A DNA stretch of 64,000 nucleotides from Eledone cirrhosa (lineage: Eukaryota). A model generated the notes under the pieces. That model had not been told where the DNA came from and searched no databases. It saw nothing but the letters and a program-made list of their open reading frames with translations. This document shows, in pieces, positions 13,834 to 60,349 of this stretch. Made by a program: the position numbers and the translations under genes. The first letter of the stretch is position 1; each line of letters opens with the position of its first letter. The stretch spans positions 42,842,001 through 42,906,000 of the forward strand of contig OZ024745.1 in NCBI GenBank assembly GCA_964016885.1, given 5' to 3'.

Positions 13834-14573
13834 GAAAGGTACAGAAAGTATTGTAGCAAGAAGCCAACAGTATTCCATAATATATAAGTGACTATAGCGT
13901 CAAAATGGGAAAATAGTTAACATAAGATGTGGGAAAAATAATTCAAACTCAATTCAAAAAGAATCAGCATATAGATTTAACCAACAGAATTTATTGAAAT
14001 CCAGGGAAAAATCAATAGAGTGTAACTCATGATAAAACAAAGTTTAAAATACTCATCCTTCAATTTGGGACAACTACAAATGCTCTGTATAGTCTTGAAA
14101 AAGACTATTTCACGTAAACTTTCAGTGGAGATGGTCACGGTTGGAATACGATCATCAGCAGAGCTCAACACGATAGCCAAATTCTCACTGATTAATATGC
14201 CAAAAAGGGAATTTAAAAGCAGGCTAGTTTAACTTCATGCGTGATTATGAAAATAAAACGCACATGTGGAAAAACAGGGCTGGTGACGTCAGAATGAGAC
14301 GAATGTTTGTTTACATGAAACAACAGTCAAAAACATTTGGAAAAAAACTCTACAATAAGGAGTTCAGCAAAAAGCAATATTATCGCGGTTTTTTTTTTTT
14401 AATTACCGGGATTAGACACAAATAATTTAAGCACTCTAGGAAAGAAATCCGAGTATAAATATATAAATGAAAGGTATAGAAAGTATTGTAGCAAGAAGCC
14501 AACAGTATTCCATAATATATAAGTGACTATAGCGTCAAAATGGGAAAATAGTTAACGTAAGATGTGGGAAAAA
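13829..14573 (-). mobile_element. Hammerhead-containing ~635-bp repeat unit, about 1.2 copies
   Basis: Reverse-complement homolog of 58723-60305. 13831-13938 recurs at 14466-14573. Flanked by (TA)n and (TC)n(TA)n. Confidence 0.85.
14082..14164 (-). ncRNA. Type I hammerhead ribozyme
   Basis: Minus: gctctg-CTGATGA-t cgta...tacg t-GAAA-tagtctt(tttc)aagacta-TA-cagagc. Confidence 0.75.

Positions 14574-23638: not shown

Positions 23639-23655
<17 letters not shown>
22191..23655 (-). mobile_element. Non-autonomous Helitron with helicase tip, internal duplication and nested SINE (23268-23375)
   Basis: CTAG end with hairpin at 22191. GQLYVACSRVG...KNVVYIEVL at 22372-22480. 5' part matches 16080-16270. 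Confidence 0.82.
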
Positions 23656-23669
<14 letters not shown>

Positions 23670-24123
23670 CCCGGCAATAATTAAGCCCAAAGTATTTTTA
23701 TGAGTGTATAACTCTATATTTTATTTGAATTTCGGTTCCTAGAATTGTGAGCTAACAAGTTGGGTGAATTAATTTAGGCTATTATTTCTAGCCGTTTTAC
23801 AATCCACCCACGCAACTTGAAACGACGAACTCACAAGGTATTTCATTACCTCGTGTTTATTTACTTTACCTACTCTGATAGGTGTTTATTGCATATAATC
23901 TTATCTCCCGCTGAGGACTGCCTCCGGTTTATCTGTTACAAACACAACTTTTCAGGGTGAAACAGATTAATCTCTAATCTGTCCGGGAGATAATAGTTAT
24001 TGAAACGGTCAGTACATTTTAATCTATCTTGTATTTTCCGTTTGATTCTGTGTTTATATTCGTCTAACCAACATGGTCTTACTACCCTTGTAATTCTAAA
24101 CACACAATTTACTGTGTTTATTC

Positions 24124-24126
<3 letters not shown>
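23670..24126 (+). mobile_element. (TA)n-flanked non-coding element carrying a hammerhead ribozyme
   Basis: Unique ~455-bp segment between two (TA)n tracts that contains the fold at 23901-23993. Confidence 0.6.
23901..23993 (+). ncRNA. Type I hammerhead ribozyme, GUC cleavage site after 23983
   Basis: Stem I ttatctcccg/cgggagataa (10 bp), CTGAGGA, irregular stem II, GAAA (23959-62), stem III cagatta/taatctg (7 bp), then TC. Confidence 0.85.
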
Positions 24127-24191
<65 letters not shown>

Positions 24192-24195
<4 letters not shown>

Positions 24196-24500
24196 GTTTC
24201 TTCTCTTGGAACAAGGCCAGAAATTACTCAGTACATTACTGGTACTTTATTTTATCGACCCCGTAAGGATGAAAGGCAAAGTTAACCTCGACGGGATTTG
24301 AACTCAGACCGTAATAGGACATAACTATGCTAGAAAGCATGGCGTCAAACCCTTTACCGATACTGCTAATATATAATAATAATAATAATTGTTTCTACTT
24401 TTGGCACAAGGCCAGCAATTACCCAGTACATTACTGGTACTTTATTTTATCGACCCCGTAAGGATGAAAGGGAAAGTTGACCTCGGCGGGATTTGAACTC

Positions 24501-24501
<1 letters not shown>
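24192..24501 (-). mobile_element. Two tandem SINE family A copies (24192-24368, 24375-24501)
   Basis: Core and B-box in both. Second copy has (AAT)n on both sides. Confidence 0.88.
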
Positions 24502-24551
<50 letters not shown>

Positions 24552-24825
24552 TAAAGTGGGAGGTAAAAAGGATTTGGAACTGCCATGAAGTCAAAGTGGT
24601 CCCGATTGTCATAGGCGCACTAGGTACTATCTCAAAATGTTTCCAGGGATGGTTAAAGAAAATTGGCCCCGCCACGCTTTTTGGAACGCTTCAAAAGGCA
24701 TGCTTGCTGGGAACGGCAAGAACCCTCCGATACGTCCTGAATATCTGAGGCTGCAGGTAGTGGCTTGATATTCATTGCAACAAACTTTCCAGTTAACTAA
24801 CATCAATGACTGAGACTCAAAGAAC
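24552..24825 (+). mobile_element. 5'-truncated R4/Dong-clade non-LTR retrotransposon (copy 1)
   Basis: LKWEVKRIW...VPIVIGALGTI...LQKACLLGTARTLRYVLNI*, short 3' UTR, (AAT)n on both sides. Confidence 0.85.
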
Positions 24826-24875
<50 letters not shown>

Positions 24876-24876
<1 letters not shown>

Positions 24877-25749
24877 CAAATACGTGACTGATAGTAGGGA
24901 GCCAATACTCAGAATTGTACTGAAGGAGAGGACAATAGACCAGCGGATGTTCAAGGAGGAAATAACAACAAGGAGAAAGAGAAACCTTCATGAAAAATCC
25001 CTTCATAGTACCTTCTTTGAGAAAACTGAATTCAGAGATCCACAGACATGGAACTGGTTGAAAAGAGGAGACCTTAAAAAGGCTACAGAAGGAATGCTAA
25101 TGGCTACGCAAGAGCGGGCCCTCAAAACGAAGTGGCTGAAACACCATATTTACAAGGAGGAGGCTAGCCCACTGTGTAGGATCTGTGGAGAGAGGGGAGA
25201 CTGTGGCTCACATTGTATCCGAGTGTAAACACCTAACCCAGACTAACTATAAAGGCTGGAGACATGATGTGATGGGCAGGGTGATCCACTGGCACCTATG
25301 CAAAGTAAACAATTTACCACATTCTGAGAAGTGGTATGAGCATAAGCCAGAGTCGGTGATAGAAAACGATCAGATGAAGGTGCTGTGGGATTTTAGGATA
25401 CAGACGGACAAGAAACTGGAACACAATAGACCTGACCTGGTGGTTTGGGACAAGGAAAAAAGATCGTGCCTGATTGTGGATGTAGCCTGCCCATTCGACA
25501 CAAGAGTGCAAGAGAAGGAGAGGGAGAAAATTAACCGATACCAGGACTTAAAGTGGGAGGTAAAAAGGATTTGGAACTGCCGTGAAGTCAAAGTGGTCCC
25601 TATTGTCATAGGCGCACTAGGTACTATCTGAAAGAGTTTCCAAGAACACTCTCATACGTCCTAAATATCTGAGGCTGCTGGTAGTGGCTTGATATTCATT
25701 TCAACAAACTTTCCAGTTAAATAACATCAATGACTGAGACTCAAAGAAC
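24876..25749 (+). mobile_element. 5'-truncated R4/Dong-clade element (copy 2): CCHC motif + restriction-like endonuclease, disrupted
   Basis: CRICGE/ETVAHIVSEC, RHD, LWDFRIQTD, RPDLVV..IVDVACPFD..EKINRYQDL. Frameshift near 25190, stop and deletion near 25630. Same 3' end as copy 1. Confidence 0.9.
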
Positions 25750-25808
<59 letters not shown>

Positions 25809-26069: not shown

Positions 26070-29000
26070 TTACAGATATATACTCAGAGTCGGCCCATTC
26101 ACTCGGGCCATTCTTGCTTCTCTCACCCATCTTTCAACAAAATGCTGGGAAGAGAGCACTTCCTTCTCTACTCTGATTTTCCTTTTCAAATGAAATTTGA
26201 AAAAGTCAATCAGAGCATCACCGAAGAGGTAAGTGCTCGTCTTCAGCCCTTTCAAACGTGTCCACCATACTATCTCTTTCGCCATGGCCACCAGACAGAT
26301 AAAAACTGCCTGCCCTTCCCGGCTAAAGGAGGAGGGCGGGGCAATCCTCACGATAGACTCAGATGATAGCTGGATCCGTCCTAAACGCGACAGCAGGTGT
26401 TCGACATAAACCCACAAGTCAGCAATTTTCGGACACTGGACGAGTGCGTGCAGGACGGTTTCGTCGCCCTGCGCGCATCTCGGACATGCCCGGCTGACGG
26501 CACCTCCATGCCTGTAGAGTTTATCCCGAACTGGCAAGGCTCCTCGGTAGCACTGCCAGGCCAGAGATTTCTGGAAGTTGTCCATAGGCCCTGGCCCGAA
26601 AGTTCTTCCGAAGAGATTGGCTAGTTGATTTTCGTCGACGCCTAGAGTTTCCCCAAGTACGTCGTCGCTCTTCCCCTCCACTAATCCTCTATAGAACGCT
26701 GAGGTGGAGTTTCCACCGATCACATTGCCCGATTGGTCGAGGGCTGTGAGCGCCTGAAGACATTCCAGTCTCCAGGCGCTCCCTCTCGGTCTTCGCTTGA
26801 CCCAGGACTGCAGCTCCGTCAAGGAAACGAGCTGGGGAAAAACGCGTCTAGCAAACGGCGACCACACCTGATCACCGTCGAGGAAGAGGTGGAGATGTCG
26901 TAGCCTGAGCGCGTGCCTGCGCATCATCAGCCACGGCATGCCCAGCCCTCCACGTAGCGGGTGTTGACAACAGATGGACCGCCTGACCATCGGAGCACGT
27001 CCCATCCACAAAAAGCGAAAGAGCAAACGCTCCAGCGCAGTCAGGCGAGGCTTAGGACAAGGTACGACGGTTAGGCGGTAGCAGATGACAGACGCGATGT
27101 ACGCGTTAGCCACCTCCGCTCGACCTTTCAGGGATAGCTTCCTCTCCGCCCATTTCTGGGTGAGAGAAGCCACCCTGCTCGTCACCTCGTCCCAGTTTTT
27201 GTCCGTCTGGAGGTCCGGACCGAACCAGACCCCTAGCAATTTAACCGGTCCGTCCGTCCAGCGCCCGACGACGCTGTTGGACGGCATGGACCTGCCTCTC
27301 CAGGTGCCGAGCTGCAGGCCCACTGACTTTTCCTGGTTGATCATTGCTCCTGTCACCGCTTCGTATTCTCTTAGTGTAGTGCCGATCGCCTCGATGTGTT
27401 TGGCGTTCGACACCACTACGGTGACATCGTCCGCATATGCTGACACGGATCTTCCGCATCCTAGTTCGCGCGGGACTCCCCTCAACGTCTCCAGTTTGTG
27501 CAGTAATGGCTCGAGAGTCAATACGTACAAGAGGGACGAGAGGGGACATCCTTGGCGGACCGAGCGCATGATGTTGAACGGTTCCGACAGGTGACCGTTT
27601 ACTCTCACCACAGAGCAGATGTCGCTGTGCATGGCAGCGATCCAGCCTCTGAAGACGGGCCCAAAGCCAGCCGCCCTCAGGACTGCCGCTAGGTAACGAT
27701 GGTCGACCCTATCGAAAGCTTTCGACTGATCTAAATTGATCAAGGACCCACCCGTGCCAGGTTCCCTAGCTACCCTCTCTACGATGTATCGCATGAGGTG
27801 GAGGTTGTCGTGGATGGATCTGTCGGGAATGGCGCATGTCTGCGCCTCTCCCATCAGACCACCAACGACAAGCGCCAACCTCTTTGCTAGCACCTTGGCC
27901 AAAATCTTAAACTCTGTGTTTAGCAGAGTTATGGGCCGGAAATTGTCTATGTTATCCCCCTTGTTCGGATCCTTTCTCAGCAGTGCCACTGCTCCTCGGC
28001 TCACAGAACTGGGAATTCTCCCGTTCTGTTGCCAGTTGCAGTAGACGTCCGCCAAGAGGCCTCCGAACAAGTCTGGCATCTGTACGTAAAGTTCATAGGG
28101 CAGACCATCCAAACCAGGCGATTTACCCCTTGTGCAGCCAGTCATTGCCTCCCGTACTTCAGCGGCTGTTATCGGCTTTTCGCAACACTTCGCCTCAGTG
28201 GCCGAGAGCCGCGGCAGTCCGTCGAGGTAGACACTAAAGTCCATCCCTCTACCCGGCCCCCCGCTGCCCCCGAACAGCTGAGCGAAGTGTCGCTGAAAAG
28301 CTTCACACATTTGCCCGGGATCGAGTAGCATGCGCCCGTCGTGGTCCACCAAAGACCGGATCGTGGCTTTGTTGCCACGACGCGCCTCCGCCACTCGGGC
28401 CCATTGAACGGCTTTCGTCCCCTCGTGTCTGAGAGCACGCACCCTAGCTCTGACAACGCAGCCTTCGTGCTTTGCATTGAAGAATTGGTCAAGGGCCAAT
28501 TTCGCCGCAAGCACGTCGGTCGCAATGCCTTTGCTAAGCGCCTCGTCTAATTTTCTAACTAGTTCTCCCTCTGCTCTATTTTTCTCTATTGCTAAAGCCT
28601 TACTAAACCTAATCGATTCTATTCTAATCGCTCTTTTCAGAGCAAACCACCACTTGTTGTTGACGATGGCCCCCGTCAACGCCCGCTTAACTAGTTCGCT
28701 AATCCGGTCTCTGTAGGCCTTGCGCGCTGGTAAGGACGCGTTTAGCTTCCAGTAGCCGGGTCCTCGTCTATGAAGCCTATCTAAGTCAAGCACACAGGTC
28801 ACGAATTTGTGGTCCGTGTAGCTGACTATCTTGAATTGTGGACAGCCTATGCTAGACCTATCTATTTCCCTACAAAATACTCTATCTAGATATGATCTGG
28901 ATGACCCTATGCGGTTTGTCCAAGTCCACATTGGCACATTCGGGAAATCCAATCGGTACCTGTCAGACAGTTCAAAACGCCTGAGCAGGTTGGTGAGGCT

Positions 29001-29489
29001 CTTGCACCCTCCACCCCTATCCGCTAATCCCACACAGTCCCAGCGTGCATCTAAGATCCCGTTCCAGTCGCCCACTAACACTAAAGAGCGGGACGTTCCA
29101 AGAAAGGTCTCCAGACGCCGGAAGAAATCAGGCCGCCCTGCTCCTGTCGGGGCATAGACGGCCACTAGCCTGAAAGCTTGCCCGTCTCCGCTGGTCACGT
29201 CCAGCACCACCAGCTTACCCTCTGGGTCCAGGAAGATGGCCCGTATGGCGAGATCCAAACCTCTCCGAAAAAGCACAGCAACTCCTCCACCCGATCCAGG
29301 ACGGCTGGGAGATGCGTACACATCGTAGCCGCCGAAGATCGGTACGAAGGCCCGTGCTTCGGAGATTCTGGTCTCGCTGATGGCCACTACATCTATGTTT
29401 AGTGACCTGAGGTCGTTGAGCAGGTGACCCTGCTTCCATGACGACCCCAAGCCACGCGCATTTATGCTGCCTATTCTGAGTGAGGTCAT
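26070..29489 (-). CDS. ORF2: apurinic-like endonuclease + reverse transcriptase + C-terminal zinc-binding motif, 1139 aa
   Basis: APE motifs (SINARGL, ISETR, VYAP, GDWN, YLDRVF, TDH), RT motifs (SPGLDG, FRPITLLN, DQSKAFDRV, RQGCPLS, YADD), CPRC..ETVLHALVQC. Confidence 0.96.
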   Translation of the reverse strand: MTSLRIGSINARGLGSSWKQGHLLNDLRSLNIDVVAISETRISEARAFVPIFGGYDVYASPSRPGSGGGVAVLFRRGLDLAIRAIFLDPEGKLVVLDVTSGDGQAFRLVAVYAPTGAGRPDFFRRLETFLGTSRSLVLVGDWNGILDARWDCVGLADRGGGCKSLTNLLRRFELSDRYRLDFPNVPMWTWTNRIGSSRSYLDRVFCREIDRSSIGCPQFKIVSYTDHKFVTCVLDLDRLHRRGPGYWKLNASLPARKAYRDRISELVKRALTGAIVNNKWWFALKRAIRIESIRFSKALAIEKNRAEGELVRKLDEALSKGIATDVLAAKLALDQFFNAKHEGCVVRARVRALRHEGTKAVQWARVAEARRGNKATIRSLVDHDGRMLLDPGQMCEAFQRHFAQLFGGSGGPGRGMDFSVYLDGLPRLSATEAKCCEKPITAAEVREAMTGCTRGKSPGLDGLPYELYVQMPDLFGGLLADVYCNWQQNGRIPSSVSRGAVALLRKDPNKGDNIDNFRPITLLNTEFKILAKVLAKRLALVVGGLMGEAQTCAIPDRSIHDNLHLMRYIVERVAREPGTGGSLINLDQSKAFDRVDHRYLAAVLRAAGFGPVFRGWIAAMHSDICSVVRVNGHLSEPFNIMRSVRQGCPLSSLLYVLTLEPLLHKLETLRGVPRELGCGRSVSAYADDVTVVVSNAKHIEAIGTTLREYEAVTGAMINQEKSVGLQLGTWRGRSMPSNSVVGRWTDGPVKLLGVWFGPDLQTDKNWDEVTSRVASLTQKWAERKLSLKGRAEVANAYIASVICYRLTVVPCPKPRLTALERLLFRFLWMGRAPMVRRSICCQHPLRGGLGMPWLMMRRHALRLRHLHLFLDGDQVWSPFARRVFPQLVSLTELQSWVKRRPRGSAWRLECLQALTALDQSGNVIGGNSTSAFYRGLVEGKSDDVLGETLGVDENQLANLFGRTFGPGPMDNFQKSLAWQCYRGALPVRDKLYRHGGAVSRACPRCAQGDETVLHALVQCPKIADLWVYVEHLLSRLGRIQLSSESIVRIAPPSSFSREGQAVFICLVAMAKEIVWWTRLKGLKTSTYLFGDALIDFFKFHLKRKIRVEKEVLSSQHFVERWVREARMARVNGPTLSIYL

Positions 29490-29524
29490 GTTTAAAATAG
29501 AGTGGAAAAGATGGGAAAGACCAC

Positions 29525-31620
29525 TTACCGTACTTTTGGTAGAGGAGGGATGGTTTTTACATCCCTTTTCACTTGATCGTCTGGTGAAGGGACCGTTGAA
29601 TCGTCCCTTCGGCTGGTCGTCGGCTCTTCTAAGAGAATGTCTGAGTATACTCTTCGATTGATGGTTCCTCCTAGGTCCCTGAAATCACCAACTGCGTTGG
29701 GGAATTTCGTTTTAATGTTTGTGTATTGTTTCTGTGCTATTTTTAGCAGTCTTATGTTAGTTGGCGTTTTGATTGGTGCTGGTATTATGTAGTCCTGTTG
29801 TGAAATGTCTGTGTTCAATTATGTAAGTCATTAGTTTCTTGTTGTGTGTATTTATTGCCGTGCATTTGTTTTTCTGGGGGTGGGGTGTGGTTCTGCTATT
29901 TTCTTGTCGTTGTTGCTGGGTGTGTGTGTTTTGTTGTTGTGTTTGCGATGTTGGTGCTTGTGGTGGTGGTGTTGAAGGTGTTGTTGGCGGTGGGGTTGTC
30001 GCCGGTGGTGATGGTGGTGCTAGTGTGGGTGGTGATGGTGTTGGTGTTGTTGCTGCTGTGGGTCTCTTTGCAGTAGACTTTACCCTTTTCTCATTTCTTT
30101 CCTCCCTTTTCAAAGGCGACGATGCGCTGCTTCTGCGTTTGTGCCTTCTTGCGACCTTTTGCCATCCCTCTCCCACCTCACACTCCATGTCTGATTCTGT
30201 GAGGTCGGGGAGGGGTACCAGCTCCACTCTTTCACTTGTTGTTGTTGGTGATGTTTGCACTGGAGTCTCTGTTGCAGCTGCATTTGGTATTGCTGTTGTT
30301 GTTGTTAATATTTCCACTGCTGCTGCTGTTTTTGATTTCCGTGGCGTGGGTATGGGTGCCACGGACCTATCGTTCCTGGTTGCCGCTTGTCCTGTTGCTG
30401 GTAGCCGTGGAGCCGGATTCGGAAGGAGGGGGGTTTTCTCCTTTCTCAGGGTCTTCTCGTTGCAGAAGGCCCTGAGGTGAGTCTTCGATCCACAGCGAAA
30501 GCATTTCGGGCGTTTGCCCTCAACACTTATGGGCAGTTGAGTGCCGTTATCGAAGTCTATCACATCCGGGATAGCTTCGATGCACTCCTGGTTGGTTTGG
30601 ATTAGCATCTCAATGGAGGAGCCGACCCAATCTTCTCTTACTTTTTTCTGTACTTGGAGTACAGTTGTTTTGTCCTCGATTCCGATTAGGACAGACGCGG
30701 CCAGCCAAGAAGGGGTCATTCCGGGGGGGGACGTGGGTCAGTTTGACCCTCACAATTTTTTGCCCGCAGTAGGAGGGCACCAACACCATTTCCTCGCTCC
30801 TTAGGGTCACTACTGATTGGGCCTTTGCCTCCTGGGGTGTGGCAAAAAGTACGTCTACGGTGGCATATTTTTTGCCTCGGGTGATGTGCGTTTTCCGCTG
30901 CCACACAGACCCCAAGGCTTTTTGTATTTGGGCCTCTGTGGCTCTTTCCACCCTACGGGATTTTGTACTTACTGTACGGTACGTGACCGTACAGTGCTCT
31001 TGGGTTTTGAAAAATTTTTCCGCTGCCTTGCAGATTGCTCGGTGTCCGTTCTTTGTCACCATCTTCTTCGCTTCCTCTAATTCCTCATTTGTTATGAGGA
31101 TTGTTTCCAAGTTTTTCGCAATACCTGCAAATGAGATTGGTTTTTCTCTGCTGTTGTTGTTGTCGTCAGAGCTGCTGGTACTTTTGTTGTTGCTGCAGGT
31201 ACTACGACTACTGCCTCCGCCGCTGTTGCTGTGGTTGTTGTTGGTGTTGCTGCTGCTAATGCTGTTGTTGTTTATGCTGCTGGTGATGCTGTTGCGGCTG
31301 CTACTGTTGTTTTCATTGTCACTGTTGCTGTTGTTATTACGGCTGCTACTGCTATTATTCCTGACGTCAGACGAATGAACTGGGTTTTCGTATTTCCCGC
31401 ACACCTGTTTCGTCGCTGTCGTCGTCGTCGTAGAGAAACCTTGCACGCTTTGCACGAGACTTTTCTTTTCTTTCGTCACTTGCGAAAGAGAAGGGAGGGA
31501 GAGAGACACATTTAAAGAAGGGAGGGAGAGAGACAATCTTCTCTCTGCTGTAGTGATGATTGAGGAAGAAGAAGACGGAATGAGTGGGAGTGACGTATGA
31601 AATTTCTTTTTCGTAGCCAT
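29525..31620 (-). CDS. ORF1 (gag-like nucleic-acid-binding protein), split by one or two frameshifts
   Basis: ORFs 30610-31620, 29757-30719 and 29525-29818 overlap. CFRCGSKTHLRAFC (CX2CX4HX4C). First shift at the G8 run 30723-30730. Confidence 0.75.
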
Positions 31621-58715: not shown

Positions 58716-59344
58716 TGTATATATTCCAACCATGACCATCCCCACTGAAAGTTTCGTGAAATAGTCTTTTTTAAGACTATACAGAGCATTTGTAGATTTT
58801 CCAAATTGAAGGATGAGTATTTTAAACTCTATTTTATTCTGAGTTAAGGCTTTATTGACTTTTCCCTGGATTTCACCAAATTCTGTGGATGAATCTATGT
58901 CCTGATTCTTTTTGAATTGAGTTTGAATTATTTTCCCACATCTTACGTTAACTATTTTTCCATTTTGACGCTATAGTCACTTATATATCATGAAATACTG
59001 TTGGCTTCTTGCTCACAATAATTTCTATACTTTTCATTTATATTTTTATACTTGGATTTCTTTTCTAGAGTGCTTAAAATTATTTGTGACTAATCCTGGT
59101 CTTTTTTTTAAAAAAAACGCGATAATATTGCTTTTTTGCTGAACTCCTTATATTGTAGAGTTTTTTGTCGGAATATTTTTGACTGTTGTTTCATGTAAAC
59201 AGACATTCGTCTCATTCTGACGTCACCAGCCCTGTCTACATGTGCGTTTATTTTCATAATTACGCATCATGTTGAACTAGCCTGCTTTTAAATTCCCTTT
59301 TTGGCATATTATAAACAGTGGTGCTTTGGTTATCGTGTCTTTGA

Positions 59345-59425
59345 GCTCTACTGATGATCGATTCCAACCGTGACCATCCCCACTGAAAGTTTCGTGAAAT
59401 AGTCTTTTTTAAGACTATACAGAGC
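59345..59425 (+). ncRNA. Type I hammerhead ribozyme (one stem I mismatch)
   Basis: gctcta-CTGATGA...GAAA-tagtctt(tttt)aagacta-TA-cagagc. Confidence 0.65.
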
Positions 59426-59969
59426 ATTTGTAGTTTTTCCAAATTGAAGGATGAGTATTTTAAACTTTATTTTATTCTGAGTTAAGGCTTTATTGACTTT
59501 TCCTTGGATTTCACCAAATTCTGATGTCCTGATTCTTTTTGAATTGAGTTTGAATTATTTTCTCACATCTTACGTTAACTATTTTTCCATTTTGACGCTA
59601 TAGTCACTTATATATTATGAAATAGTGTTGGCTTCTTGCTCACAATAATTTCTATACTTTTCATTTATATTTATACTCGGATTTCTTTTCTAGAGTGCTT
59701 AAAATTATTTGTGACTAATCCCGGTCTTTTTTTAAAAAAAAACGCGATAATATTGCTTTTTTGCTGAACTCCTTATATTGTAGAGTTTTTTGTCGGAATG
59801 TTTTTGACTGTTGTTTCATGTAAACAGACATTCGTTTCATTCTGACGTCACCAGCCCTGTCTACATGTGCGTTTATTTTCATAATTACGCATCATGTTGA
59901 ACTAGCCTGCTTTTAAATTCCCTTTTTGGCATATTATAAACAGTGGCACTGATGTTATCGTGTCTTTGA

Positions 59970-60050
59970 GCTCTGCTGATGATCGATTCCAACCGTGACC
60001 ATCCCCACTGAAAGTTTCGTGAAATAGTCTTTTTTAAGACTATACAGAGC
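59970..60050 (+). ncRNA. Type I hammerhead ribozyme, AUA site after 60044
   Basis: gctctg/cagagc stem I, CTGATGA, cga..tcg stem II, GAAA, 7-bp stem III. Confidence 0.75.
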
Positions 60051-60349
60051 ATTTGTAGTTTTTCCAAATTGAAGGATGAGTATTTTAAACTTTATTTTAT
60101 TCTGAGTTAAGGCTTTATTGATTTTTCCCTGGATTTCACCAAATTCTGTGGATGAATCTATGTCCTGATTCTTTTTGATTTGAGTTTGAATTATTTTCCC
60201 ACATCTTACGTTAACTATTTTCCCATTTTGACGTTATAGTCACTTATATATTATGAAATACTGTTGGCTTCTTGCTCACAATAATTTCTATACTTTTCAT
60301 TTATATAAATATATATATATGTATTACATACATATATATATATATATAA

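Follow-up and report, generated by a model that had tools for sequence, protein, structure and literature searches.

The window, a 64,000-nucleotide stretch of Eledone cirrhosa contig OZ024745.1 (assembly GCA_964016885.1, positions 42,842,001 to 42,906,000), contains a short non-coding unit that is set between (TA)n runs and carries a predicted type I hammerhead ribozyme on its plus strand. The features of this locus are given below in window coordinates.

23644..23668, no strand, (TA)n target repeat on the left
23669..23696, minus strand, short piece (28 bp) of the unit's tail region, set in inverted orientation at the 5' junction; as the reverse complement it matches the subfamily majority
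23692..24126, plus strand, body of the non-coding unit (0.9 of the 486-bp period; GC 0.35; 94% identical to the subfamily majority)
23882..23900, plus strand, 5'-flank strand of the predicted pseudoknot duplex, with a private G-to-A change at 23888
23901..23910, plus strand, stem I 5' strand (10 bp here, 8 bp in the subfamily majority)
23911..23917, plus strand, core C3-A9, CUGAGGA
23913..23924, plus strand, predicted competing hairpin GAGG/CCUC that would hide the core (23913-16 with 23921-24)
23918..23919, plus strand, insert of 2 nt (CU) between A9 and G10.1
23920..23923, plus strand, stem II 5' strand, GCCU
23927..23945, plus strand, loop II strand of the predicted pseudoknot duplex, with a private A-to-T change at 23928
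23955..23958, plus strand, stem II 3' strand, GGGU here versus GGGC in the family (C11.1-to-U at 23958)
23959..23962, plus strand, core G12-A15.1, GAAA
23963..23981, plus strand, stem III of 7 bp (23963-23969/23975-23981) with a 5-nt loop free to vary between subfamilies
23982..23983, plus strand, U16.1 and C17; GUC is 23981-23983, and the cut is predicted 3' of 23983 from the hammerhead consensus
23984..23993, plus strand, stem I 3' strand
24127..24192, no strand, (TA)n at the family's usual proximal 3' end

Past this last TA run the window holds SINE copies (24193-24500), fragments of an (AAT)n-flanked LINE (24552-25800) and a minus-strand ORF of 1203 aa for an endonuclease and reverse transcriptase (26070-29684). 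A near-identical duplicate of 23845-24551, comprising part of the window copy and the SINEs that follow it, lies on another contig (L017/L045). It shares the private changes of the window copy and begins after an (AAT)n run beside a LINE.

All of the motif elements named in an earlier, sequence-only reading of the window (stem I, CUGAGGA, GAAA, stem III and GUC) were found in place. The window copy has every nucleotide of the conserved core (C3, U4, G5, A6, G8, A9, G12, A13, A14, A15.1, U16.1 and H17); stems I and III close on that core and stem I is open, which is the type I arrangement. A descriptor scan of the window returned three matches, and 100 dinucleotide shuffles of the window, scanned on both strands, gave two loose matches in total and none with a stem I of at least 6 and a stem III of at least 4. 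The strands run in ordinary type I order and are not scrambled in the manner of type-SGC, and stem III, at 7 bp, is not the very short palindromic stem of a minimal, dimer-type Penelope hammerhead. The proposed type I hammerhead was supported, with a stable stem III that distinguishes it from the minimal Penelope hammerheads. The 10-bp length reported for stem I holds for this copy and not for the subfamily majority, which has 8 bp; a C-to-T change at 23902 adds the extra length. Rfam returned nothing at gathering level for the window hammerhead and no hammerhead family at E ≤ 10, likely because of the long loop II, and the sole match of covariance model R1, searched within the window, was the hammerhead at 23901..23993. 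As had been noted from the sequence, there is no credible ORF (inside the element, no ATG ORF of at least 25 aa apart from one of 25 aa on the minus strand) and no relationship to the window's other hammerhead family, with which blastn gave no significant match (best E, 0.12). Judged from its sequence, the element is a real hammerhead motif with a predicted cut site.

The same reading had called the element an orphan, a description that did not survive a search of the 3.0-Gb genome: 1199 candidates came up, and the 40 that were scored contained 53 matches to the element. A pattern of GAAA, stem III and GUC had 155 matches genome-wide and a pattern just 3' of the cut site had 685, with no match in either control. 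Exact-core patterns gave 614 matches with a 0-1-nt insert (control, 0), 135 with a 2-nt insert (control, 0) and 123 with a 3-5-nt insert (control, 2); among the first 100 matches listed per pattern, family membership was assigned by eye to 89, 100 and 96 with 1, 2 and 3 inserted nucleotides, respectively. More than 800 exact-core relatives of the unit are present genome-wide. The majority sequences of subfamily A, to which the window copy belongs (29 copies), and subfamily B (51 copies) are identical at 43 of 48 positions of the core and stems, versus 206 of 314 outside (p 7e-4), and two of the five motif differences represent an alignment shift.

Across the relatives, G, U, C and A all occur at N7, and in 26 rows one stem I pair appears as C-G (10 rows), U-G (6) or U-A (7). 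Some amplified subfamilies have lost loop III or carry it inverted (UCCC to GGGA) but retain stem III (L141, L157, L159, L162-L164, L149, L168), a change that probably arose by template switching at the hairpin, and a related family carries a U3-A8 swap in the core of most of 30 copies. Within the close family alone covariation is thin, with two pairs changed on both sides and 102 of 500 shuffles scoring as high. The conservation of core and stems relative to the flanks, the exchange at the stem I pair, the loop III change and the U3-A8 swap argue for selection on the motif. Outside the ribozyme, at window 23725-23840, the subfamily majorities contain conserved short blocks (TTTCGGCTCC, GAGCT and CACGAGGT), which could be promoter or protein-binding sites.

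The relatives also redefine stem II, which had been read as long and irregular. It consists of 4 bp (23920-23/23955-58) placed after the 2-nt insert, and the remainder is a 31-nt loop. The layout of the relatives is CUGAGGA-CU-GCCU ... GGGC-GAAA, and a single long stem II spanning the 41 nt was ruled out by their GCCY/GGGC pairing. The 4 bp are retained across the family, with 98% of cells paired. The window copy has G-U at 10.1-11.1 instead of G-C, and the pairing probability predicted for its stem II is about 0; of 30 aligned loci, 26 have C at position 11.1, three have T (L029, the window copy and its duplicate L017) and one has A. The insert between A9 and G10.1 measures 1, 2 or 3 nt depending on the subfamily, and its letters vary in the same way (U, A, CU, AA, UA, AAU and AAA). 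On a tree of 92 exact-core copies, for which flanks were untrimmed, bootstrap was rough and three 1-nt rows fetched later were left out, insert length changes just twice, which suggests that the longer inserts were inherited and amplified. Apparent inserts of 3 and 5 nt at A9 were also seen at L212 and L213.

Loop II residues 23927-45 are complementary to the 5' flank at 23882-900, with 17 of 19 pairs in the subfamily majority and 15 of 19 in the window copy, and predicted duplex energies are -19.7 kcal/mol for majority A, -18.4 for majority B and -10.2 for the window copy. The pairing was first spotted by eye and tested afterwards. In a 28-row alignment that brought in other long-loop hammerheads and the window's second family, 11 of 18 duplex pairs change on both sides. 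The whole-structure covariation score was 0.341, versus 0.164 for shuffled and 0.07-0.12 for slid controls, although relatedness inflates such scores. In an alignment-free swap test, the cognate flank was the best partner in 8 of 10 representatives (mean, -18.8 versus -10.1; permutation p 1e-5). This test included the related L209 and L210, used L202 in preference to L201 and 14158 in preference to 59976 (better-pairing copies, selected after scores were known), and left out L207, L211, L242 and the short-stem-III families. The strand downstream of stem I, tried as an alternative partner of loop II, was best in 0 of 10. Some minimum-energy folds pair loop II with the GAAA/stem III strand, for which no compensatory change was seen; this pairing was kept as a misfold only. 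Shuffling matched 23 of the 28 rows at most 7 times in 500; the weak five are L201, L212, L213, window 59976 and the window copy, whose duplex was equalled by 39 of 500 shuffles. Collectively, these comparisons predict a loop II:5'-flank pairing that covaries across about nine diverged families.

At its proximal end the duplex lies against stem I, with a gap of 0-3 nt in most rows, and its start is 0-4 nt past stem II. The linker back to stem II is mostly 3-10 nt for 15-21 pairs and often 5-6 nt for 17-20 pairs. Most families have mismatches in the middle of the duplex, and a GU/AC step in its distal helix hardly varies; in one subfamily the distal helix reaches 12 bp with just a 2x2 loop. By A-form geometry 19 pairs span roughly 53 Å and 5 nt roughly 36 Å, a borderline fit that calls for opening of the distal helix or for a bend at the weak middle of the duplex. 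Before the 3' half of the transcript has been synthesized, the duplex is also what the transcript is predicted to form. Among 30 rows of short-stem-III families, many of them related, 3 attained z ≤ -2 for the long duplex and 16 for a short proximal pairing, with the cognate flank preferred in 2 of 8 cases when that short pairing was put through a cross-family swap test.

Several other hammerhead families were encountered alongside. The window's second type I family (14082-14164, minus strand, and 58726-60305, plus strand) has a tandem period of about 625 bp, U-U at the base of stem II and an AUA triplet; its sequence is unrelated to the unit at 23901..23993, and it apparently shares the flank:loop II pairing and has end motifs that resemble those of the unit. 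L201-L213 and L251-L280 represent about eight other diverged type I families with long loops, and most copies of the L206 family (681 candidates) have the U3-A8 core. In L221-L249 (925 matches) stem III is minimal and palindromic, the long loop II contains a hairpin, and a short pseudoknot may lie beside stem I.

The window copy differs from the majority at four motif positions (23888, 23902, 23928 and 23958). The core-hiding hairpin has a predicted probability of 0.94 in the window copy and 0.89 in the subfamily majority, and in the free-energy minimum of 23895-24000 stem I forms and the hammerhead does not. The nested active fold lies 6.2 kcal/mol above the ensemble in the window copy, versus 2.1 in the subfamily majority and 0.7-0.9 in two sister majorities; giving the window copy the majority letter at 11.1 brings this value to 2.9, and restoring 23928 as well brings it to 2.1. 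By active-fold energy the window copy ranks 23rd among 26 foldable 2-nt copies. Single 1-nt copies scatter likewise (median, 4.0), which shows that the active-fold prediction is noisy, and folding models ignore pseudoknots, so the earlier claim of monomer cleavage is lowered and not refuted. The U at 11.1, the two changes in the duplex and the 6.2 kcal/mol climb to the active fold nevertheless make efficient cleavage of the window copy as a monomer doubtful in these models, and its single hammerhead makes monomer release impossible. Comparison with its relatives at the nucleotide level indicates that the window copy is a decayed single copy and a poor example of its family.

The unit is short, non-coding and low in GC (0.35), with one type I hammerhead per period of 486 bp in subfamily A and 449-474 bp in the others. 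The 3' ends fall mainly at two places, a TA stretch within the unit and a site 78 bp beyond it (90 of 113 B/G segments); the distal ends run into TA in 30 of 37 cases, and the window copy terminates at the proximal site. Both orientations are present at 47 of 85 mapped loci. Of 157 segments, 29 exceed one unit in length. Copies run on from the end of one unit into the start of the next, uninterrupted by foreign sequence, for as much as 887 bp. Sister subfamilies include tandems that hold two or three hammerheads (L084, L184, L215 and L219), and no two-hammerhead tandem was found among 30 loci of the window copy's own subfamily or in the window copy. Partial tandems, inverted 5'-truncated arms, a tail at one end and (TA)n targets are described for Penelope elements (Craig et al., PMC8557442), and the anatomy of the unit agrees on each point. 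None of 30 matches selected by sequence 3' of the cut site starts at that site, and in a sample biased to loci picked via the ribozyme only 1 of 195 segments starts within 1 nt of it, with no pile-up of 5' ends. On these counts the templates would have had an intact junction, as circles or as uncut multimers; the lack of such ends fits circles and also a ribozyme that rarely cuts.

No ORF attached to the unit was found at 100 larger loci, near which Penelope remnants vary in position and strand. The unit had no homology to the one Neptune family compared, and a Neptune element beside L071, considered as an autonomous parent, proved to be a neighbour without homology to the unit. A Neptune-type Penelope family (L111-L140) is young and abundant (15327 candidates), with frames of 777 aa, a minimal hammerhead with U3-A8, two alternative 3' ends about 30 bp apart and last few letters similar to those of the unit. 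At L181 (2325-7022) a different Penelope-type ORF is enclosed by an inverted structure of 4.7 kb, each arm of which contains the unit, as if the element with this ORF had carried it along. By these characters the unit would count as a non-LTR retrozyme, and it is likely to have been moved by Penelope-type proteins.

Metazoan non-LTR retrozymes are likewise non-coding and low in GC, with one type I hammerhead per period, and likewise occur as dimers, trimers and many monomers beside autonomous Penelope elements (PMC7229834; 10.64898/2026.07.22.740005). At 449-486 bp, the unit is larger than the 170-400 nt RNAs of PMC7229834 and within the 51-972 bp of Li, Clavereau and Pollet 2026. The accessible parts of these two papers make no mention of a 7-bp stem III, a 31-nt loop II, 1-3 extra core nucleotides or a 15-21-bp flank pseudoknot, and inverted arms and a tail of clear Penelope type further set the unit apart from the retrozymes described there. 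The minimal hammerheads of Penelope pseudo-LTRs (Cervera and de la Peña 2014, PMC4209133) are likewise type I, with an extra nucleotide between 9 and 10.1 and G10.1-C11.1, and share the U3-A8 variant with families related to the unit; according to the sections consulted, their stem III is tiny and palindromic and they carry a single extra nucleotide, in contrast to the stable stem III and 1-3 extra nucleotides of the unit. A10 of CChMVd is also one extra nucleotide at this site (PMC1636495). Within the literature searched, neither an insert of 2-3 nt nor a long flank:loop II pairing was found described; Lünse et al. 2017, De la Peña and Flores 2001, Miller and Silver 1991 and the supplement to the 2020 retrozyme paper may hold longer inserts or similar pseudoknots.

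The tertiary contact predicted for the unit is a covarying loop II:5'-flank pairing, weakened in the window copy, and not the canonical loop-loop contact. Studies of the hammerhead of satRPV, a satellite of cereal/barley yellow dwarf virus, reportedly found that an alternative tertiary structure attenuates cleavage and that a double hammerhead is required. The satRPV hammerhead has a loop 1-loop 2 pseudoknot (PMC7936874), in a plant satellite RNA unlike the unit. In the pseudoknotted hammerheads of Perreault et al. 2011 (PMC3088659), which span all three types, loop II likewise pairs beside stem I in place of the loop-loop contact; the tested example reported there has 6 bp and is activating, whereas the pairing of the unit comprises two segments with 15-21 pairs in all. 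The stem-length analyses of that paper, according to the text consulted, excluded the highly repetitive type I hammerheads. Type-SGC and other scrambled hammerheads (Eckert et al. 2023, PMC10085705) also have extra pseudoknots around the core, but the strands of the unit are in ordinary type I order.

The interpretation that we judge somewhat more probable than not is a decayed type I hammerhead of a non-coding repeat of about 450-490 bp, likely a retrozyme spread by Penelope-type reverse transcriptase, with the loop II:flank pairing likely acting as a brake. Under this interpretation, tandem loci would be transcribed, cut at successive hammerheads and closed to circles, and a Penelope-type protein would prime at TA-rich sites and copy through the rejoined cut site. 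The duplex would form first during transcription. Its proximal 6-7 bp may dock stems I and II as in known hammerhead pseudoknots, and the full duplex of 15-21 bp would strain stem II because the linker back is mostly 3-10 nt. The brake would possibly be released by the 3' half of a neighbouring unit, and the window copy, with one hammerhead, would be a dead end with weak activity. An extension of this model, tentative and on the unlikely side, is that the long duplex serves as a steric lock throughout a superfamily of animal retrozymes. It would keep the 5' half off its own 3' half, so that a lone circle stays uncut, and in a multimer the 3' half of the neighbour would dock and cut. Counting against the favoured interpretation, cleavage was found in 1 of 9 predicted retrozymes (Li et al. 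2026, 10.64898/2026.07.22.740005).

We favour the full duplex as a brake and regard a purely activating scaffold as nearly as likely. Known loop II pseudoknots activate, with rates raised 20- to over 100-fold in the cases reported (Perreault 2011, PMC3088659), and the weak middle of the duplex could hinge. The same element can accordingly be read with the whole duplex as a scaffold, in which two hinged helices hold stems I and II, the core tolerates the 2-3 extra nucleotides and intact copies cut well as monomers. The tight junctions with stems I and II, the mid-duplex mismatches, the near-invariant distal step and the shorter pairing at the same place in 16 of 30 short-stem-III rows all suit this reading. 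Linkers of 5-6 nt for 17-20 pairs and the subfamily with the 12-bp distal helix and 2x2 loop do not, and across families the short pairing tested weakly (2 of 8), leaving the scaffold possible although short of even probability. A different objection concerns the circles, which are unneeded if an autonomous Penelope element supplied the unit as a solo or partial pseudo-LTR and linear, uncleaved transcripts were the template. The insertion anatomy is that of Penelope elements, Li et al. 2026 (10.64898/2026.07.22.740005) derive retrozymes from pseudo-LTRs, and at L181 the unit occupies inverted arms around a Penelope-type ORF; the wraps of up to 887 bp from unit end to unit start without foreign sequence and the variable place and strand of nearby Penelope remnants speak against such an origin, which we regard as unlikely.

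The inserts raise the question of whether subfamilies with 2-3 extra nucleotides, including that of the window copy, are catalytically dead passengers of Penelope proteins. The precedents found in the literature searched have only 1-nt inserts, and the subfamily majority is predicted to hide its core in the hairpin. However, the 2- and 3-nt inserts mark whole amplified clades on the 92-row tree, and core and stems are kept while flanks diverge and insert letters vary, so that dead passengers appear quite improbable. We consider it very improbable that the original view holds, namely an orphan hammerhead whose window copy itself cuts well as a monomer. The full set of conserved core letters, the 10-bp stem I and the 7-bp stem III are present and the G-U at 10.1-11.1 remains a pair, but the relatives are many, four motif changes are private to this copy and its active fold is uphill.

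A hammerhead in an animal repeat is ordinary; the long pseudoknot and the 2-3-nt inserts are what is unusual against the literature examined. The amplified subfamilies with 2- and 3-nt inserts at A9 constitute natural tests of core tolerance, and hammerheads of this kind are missed by the usual descriptors and by Rfam, while the flank:loop II pairing and the hammerhead together are beyond standard folding programs. The insertion anatomy directly supports the mobility of retrozymes via Penelope proteins. The hammerhead in animal circles seems free to form and would then be blocked otherwise than by self-pairing, according to the text consulted of Cervera and de la Peña 2020 (PMC7229834), and a pseudoknot of 15-21 pairs across about nine diverged families offers a direct test of that circle-blocking point. 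If the steric-lock proposal is true, it would account for the escape from self-cleavage of animal retrozyme circles that have a stable stem III, and would show a hammerhead core accepting two or three extra nucleotides at A9.
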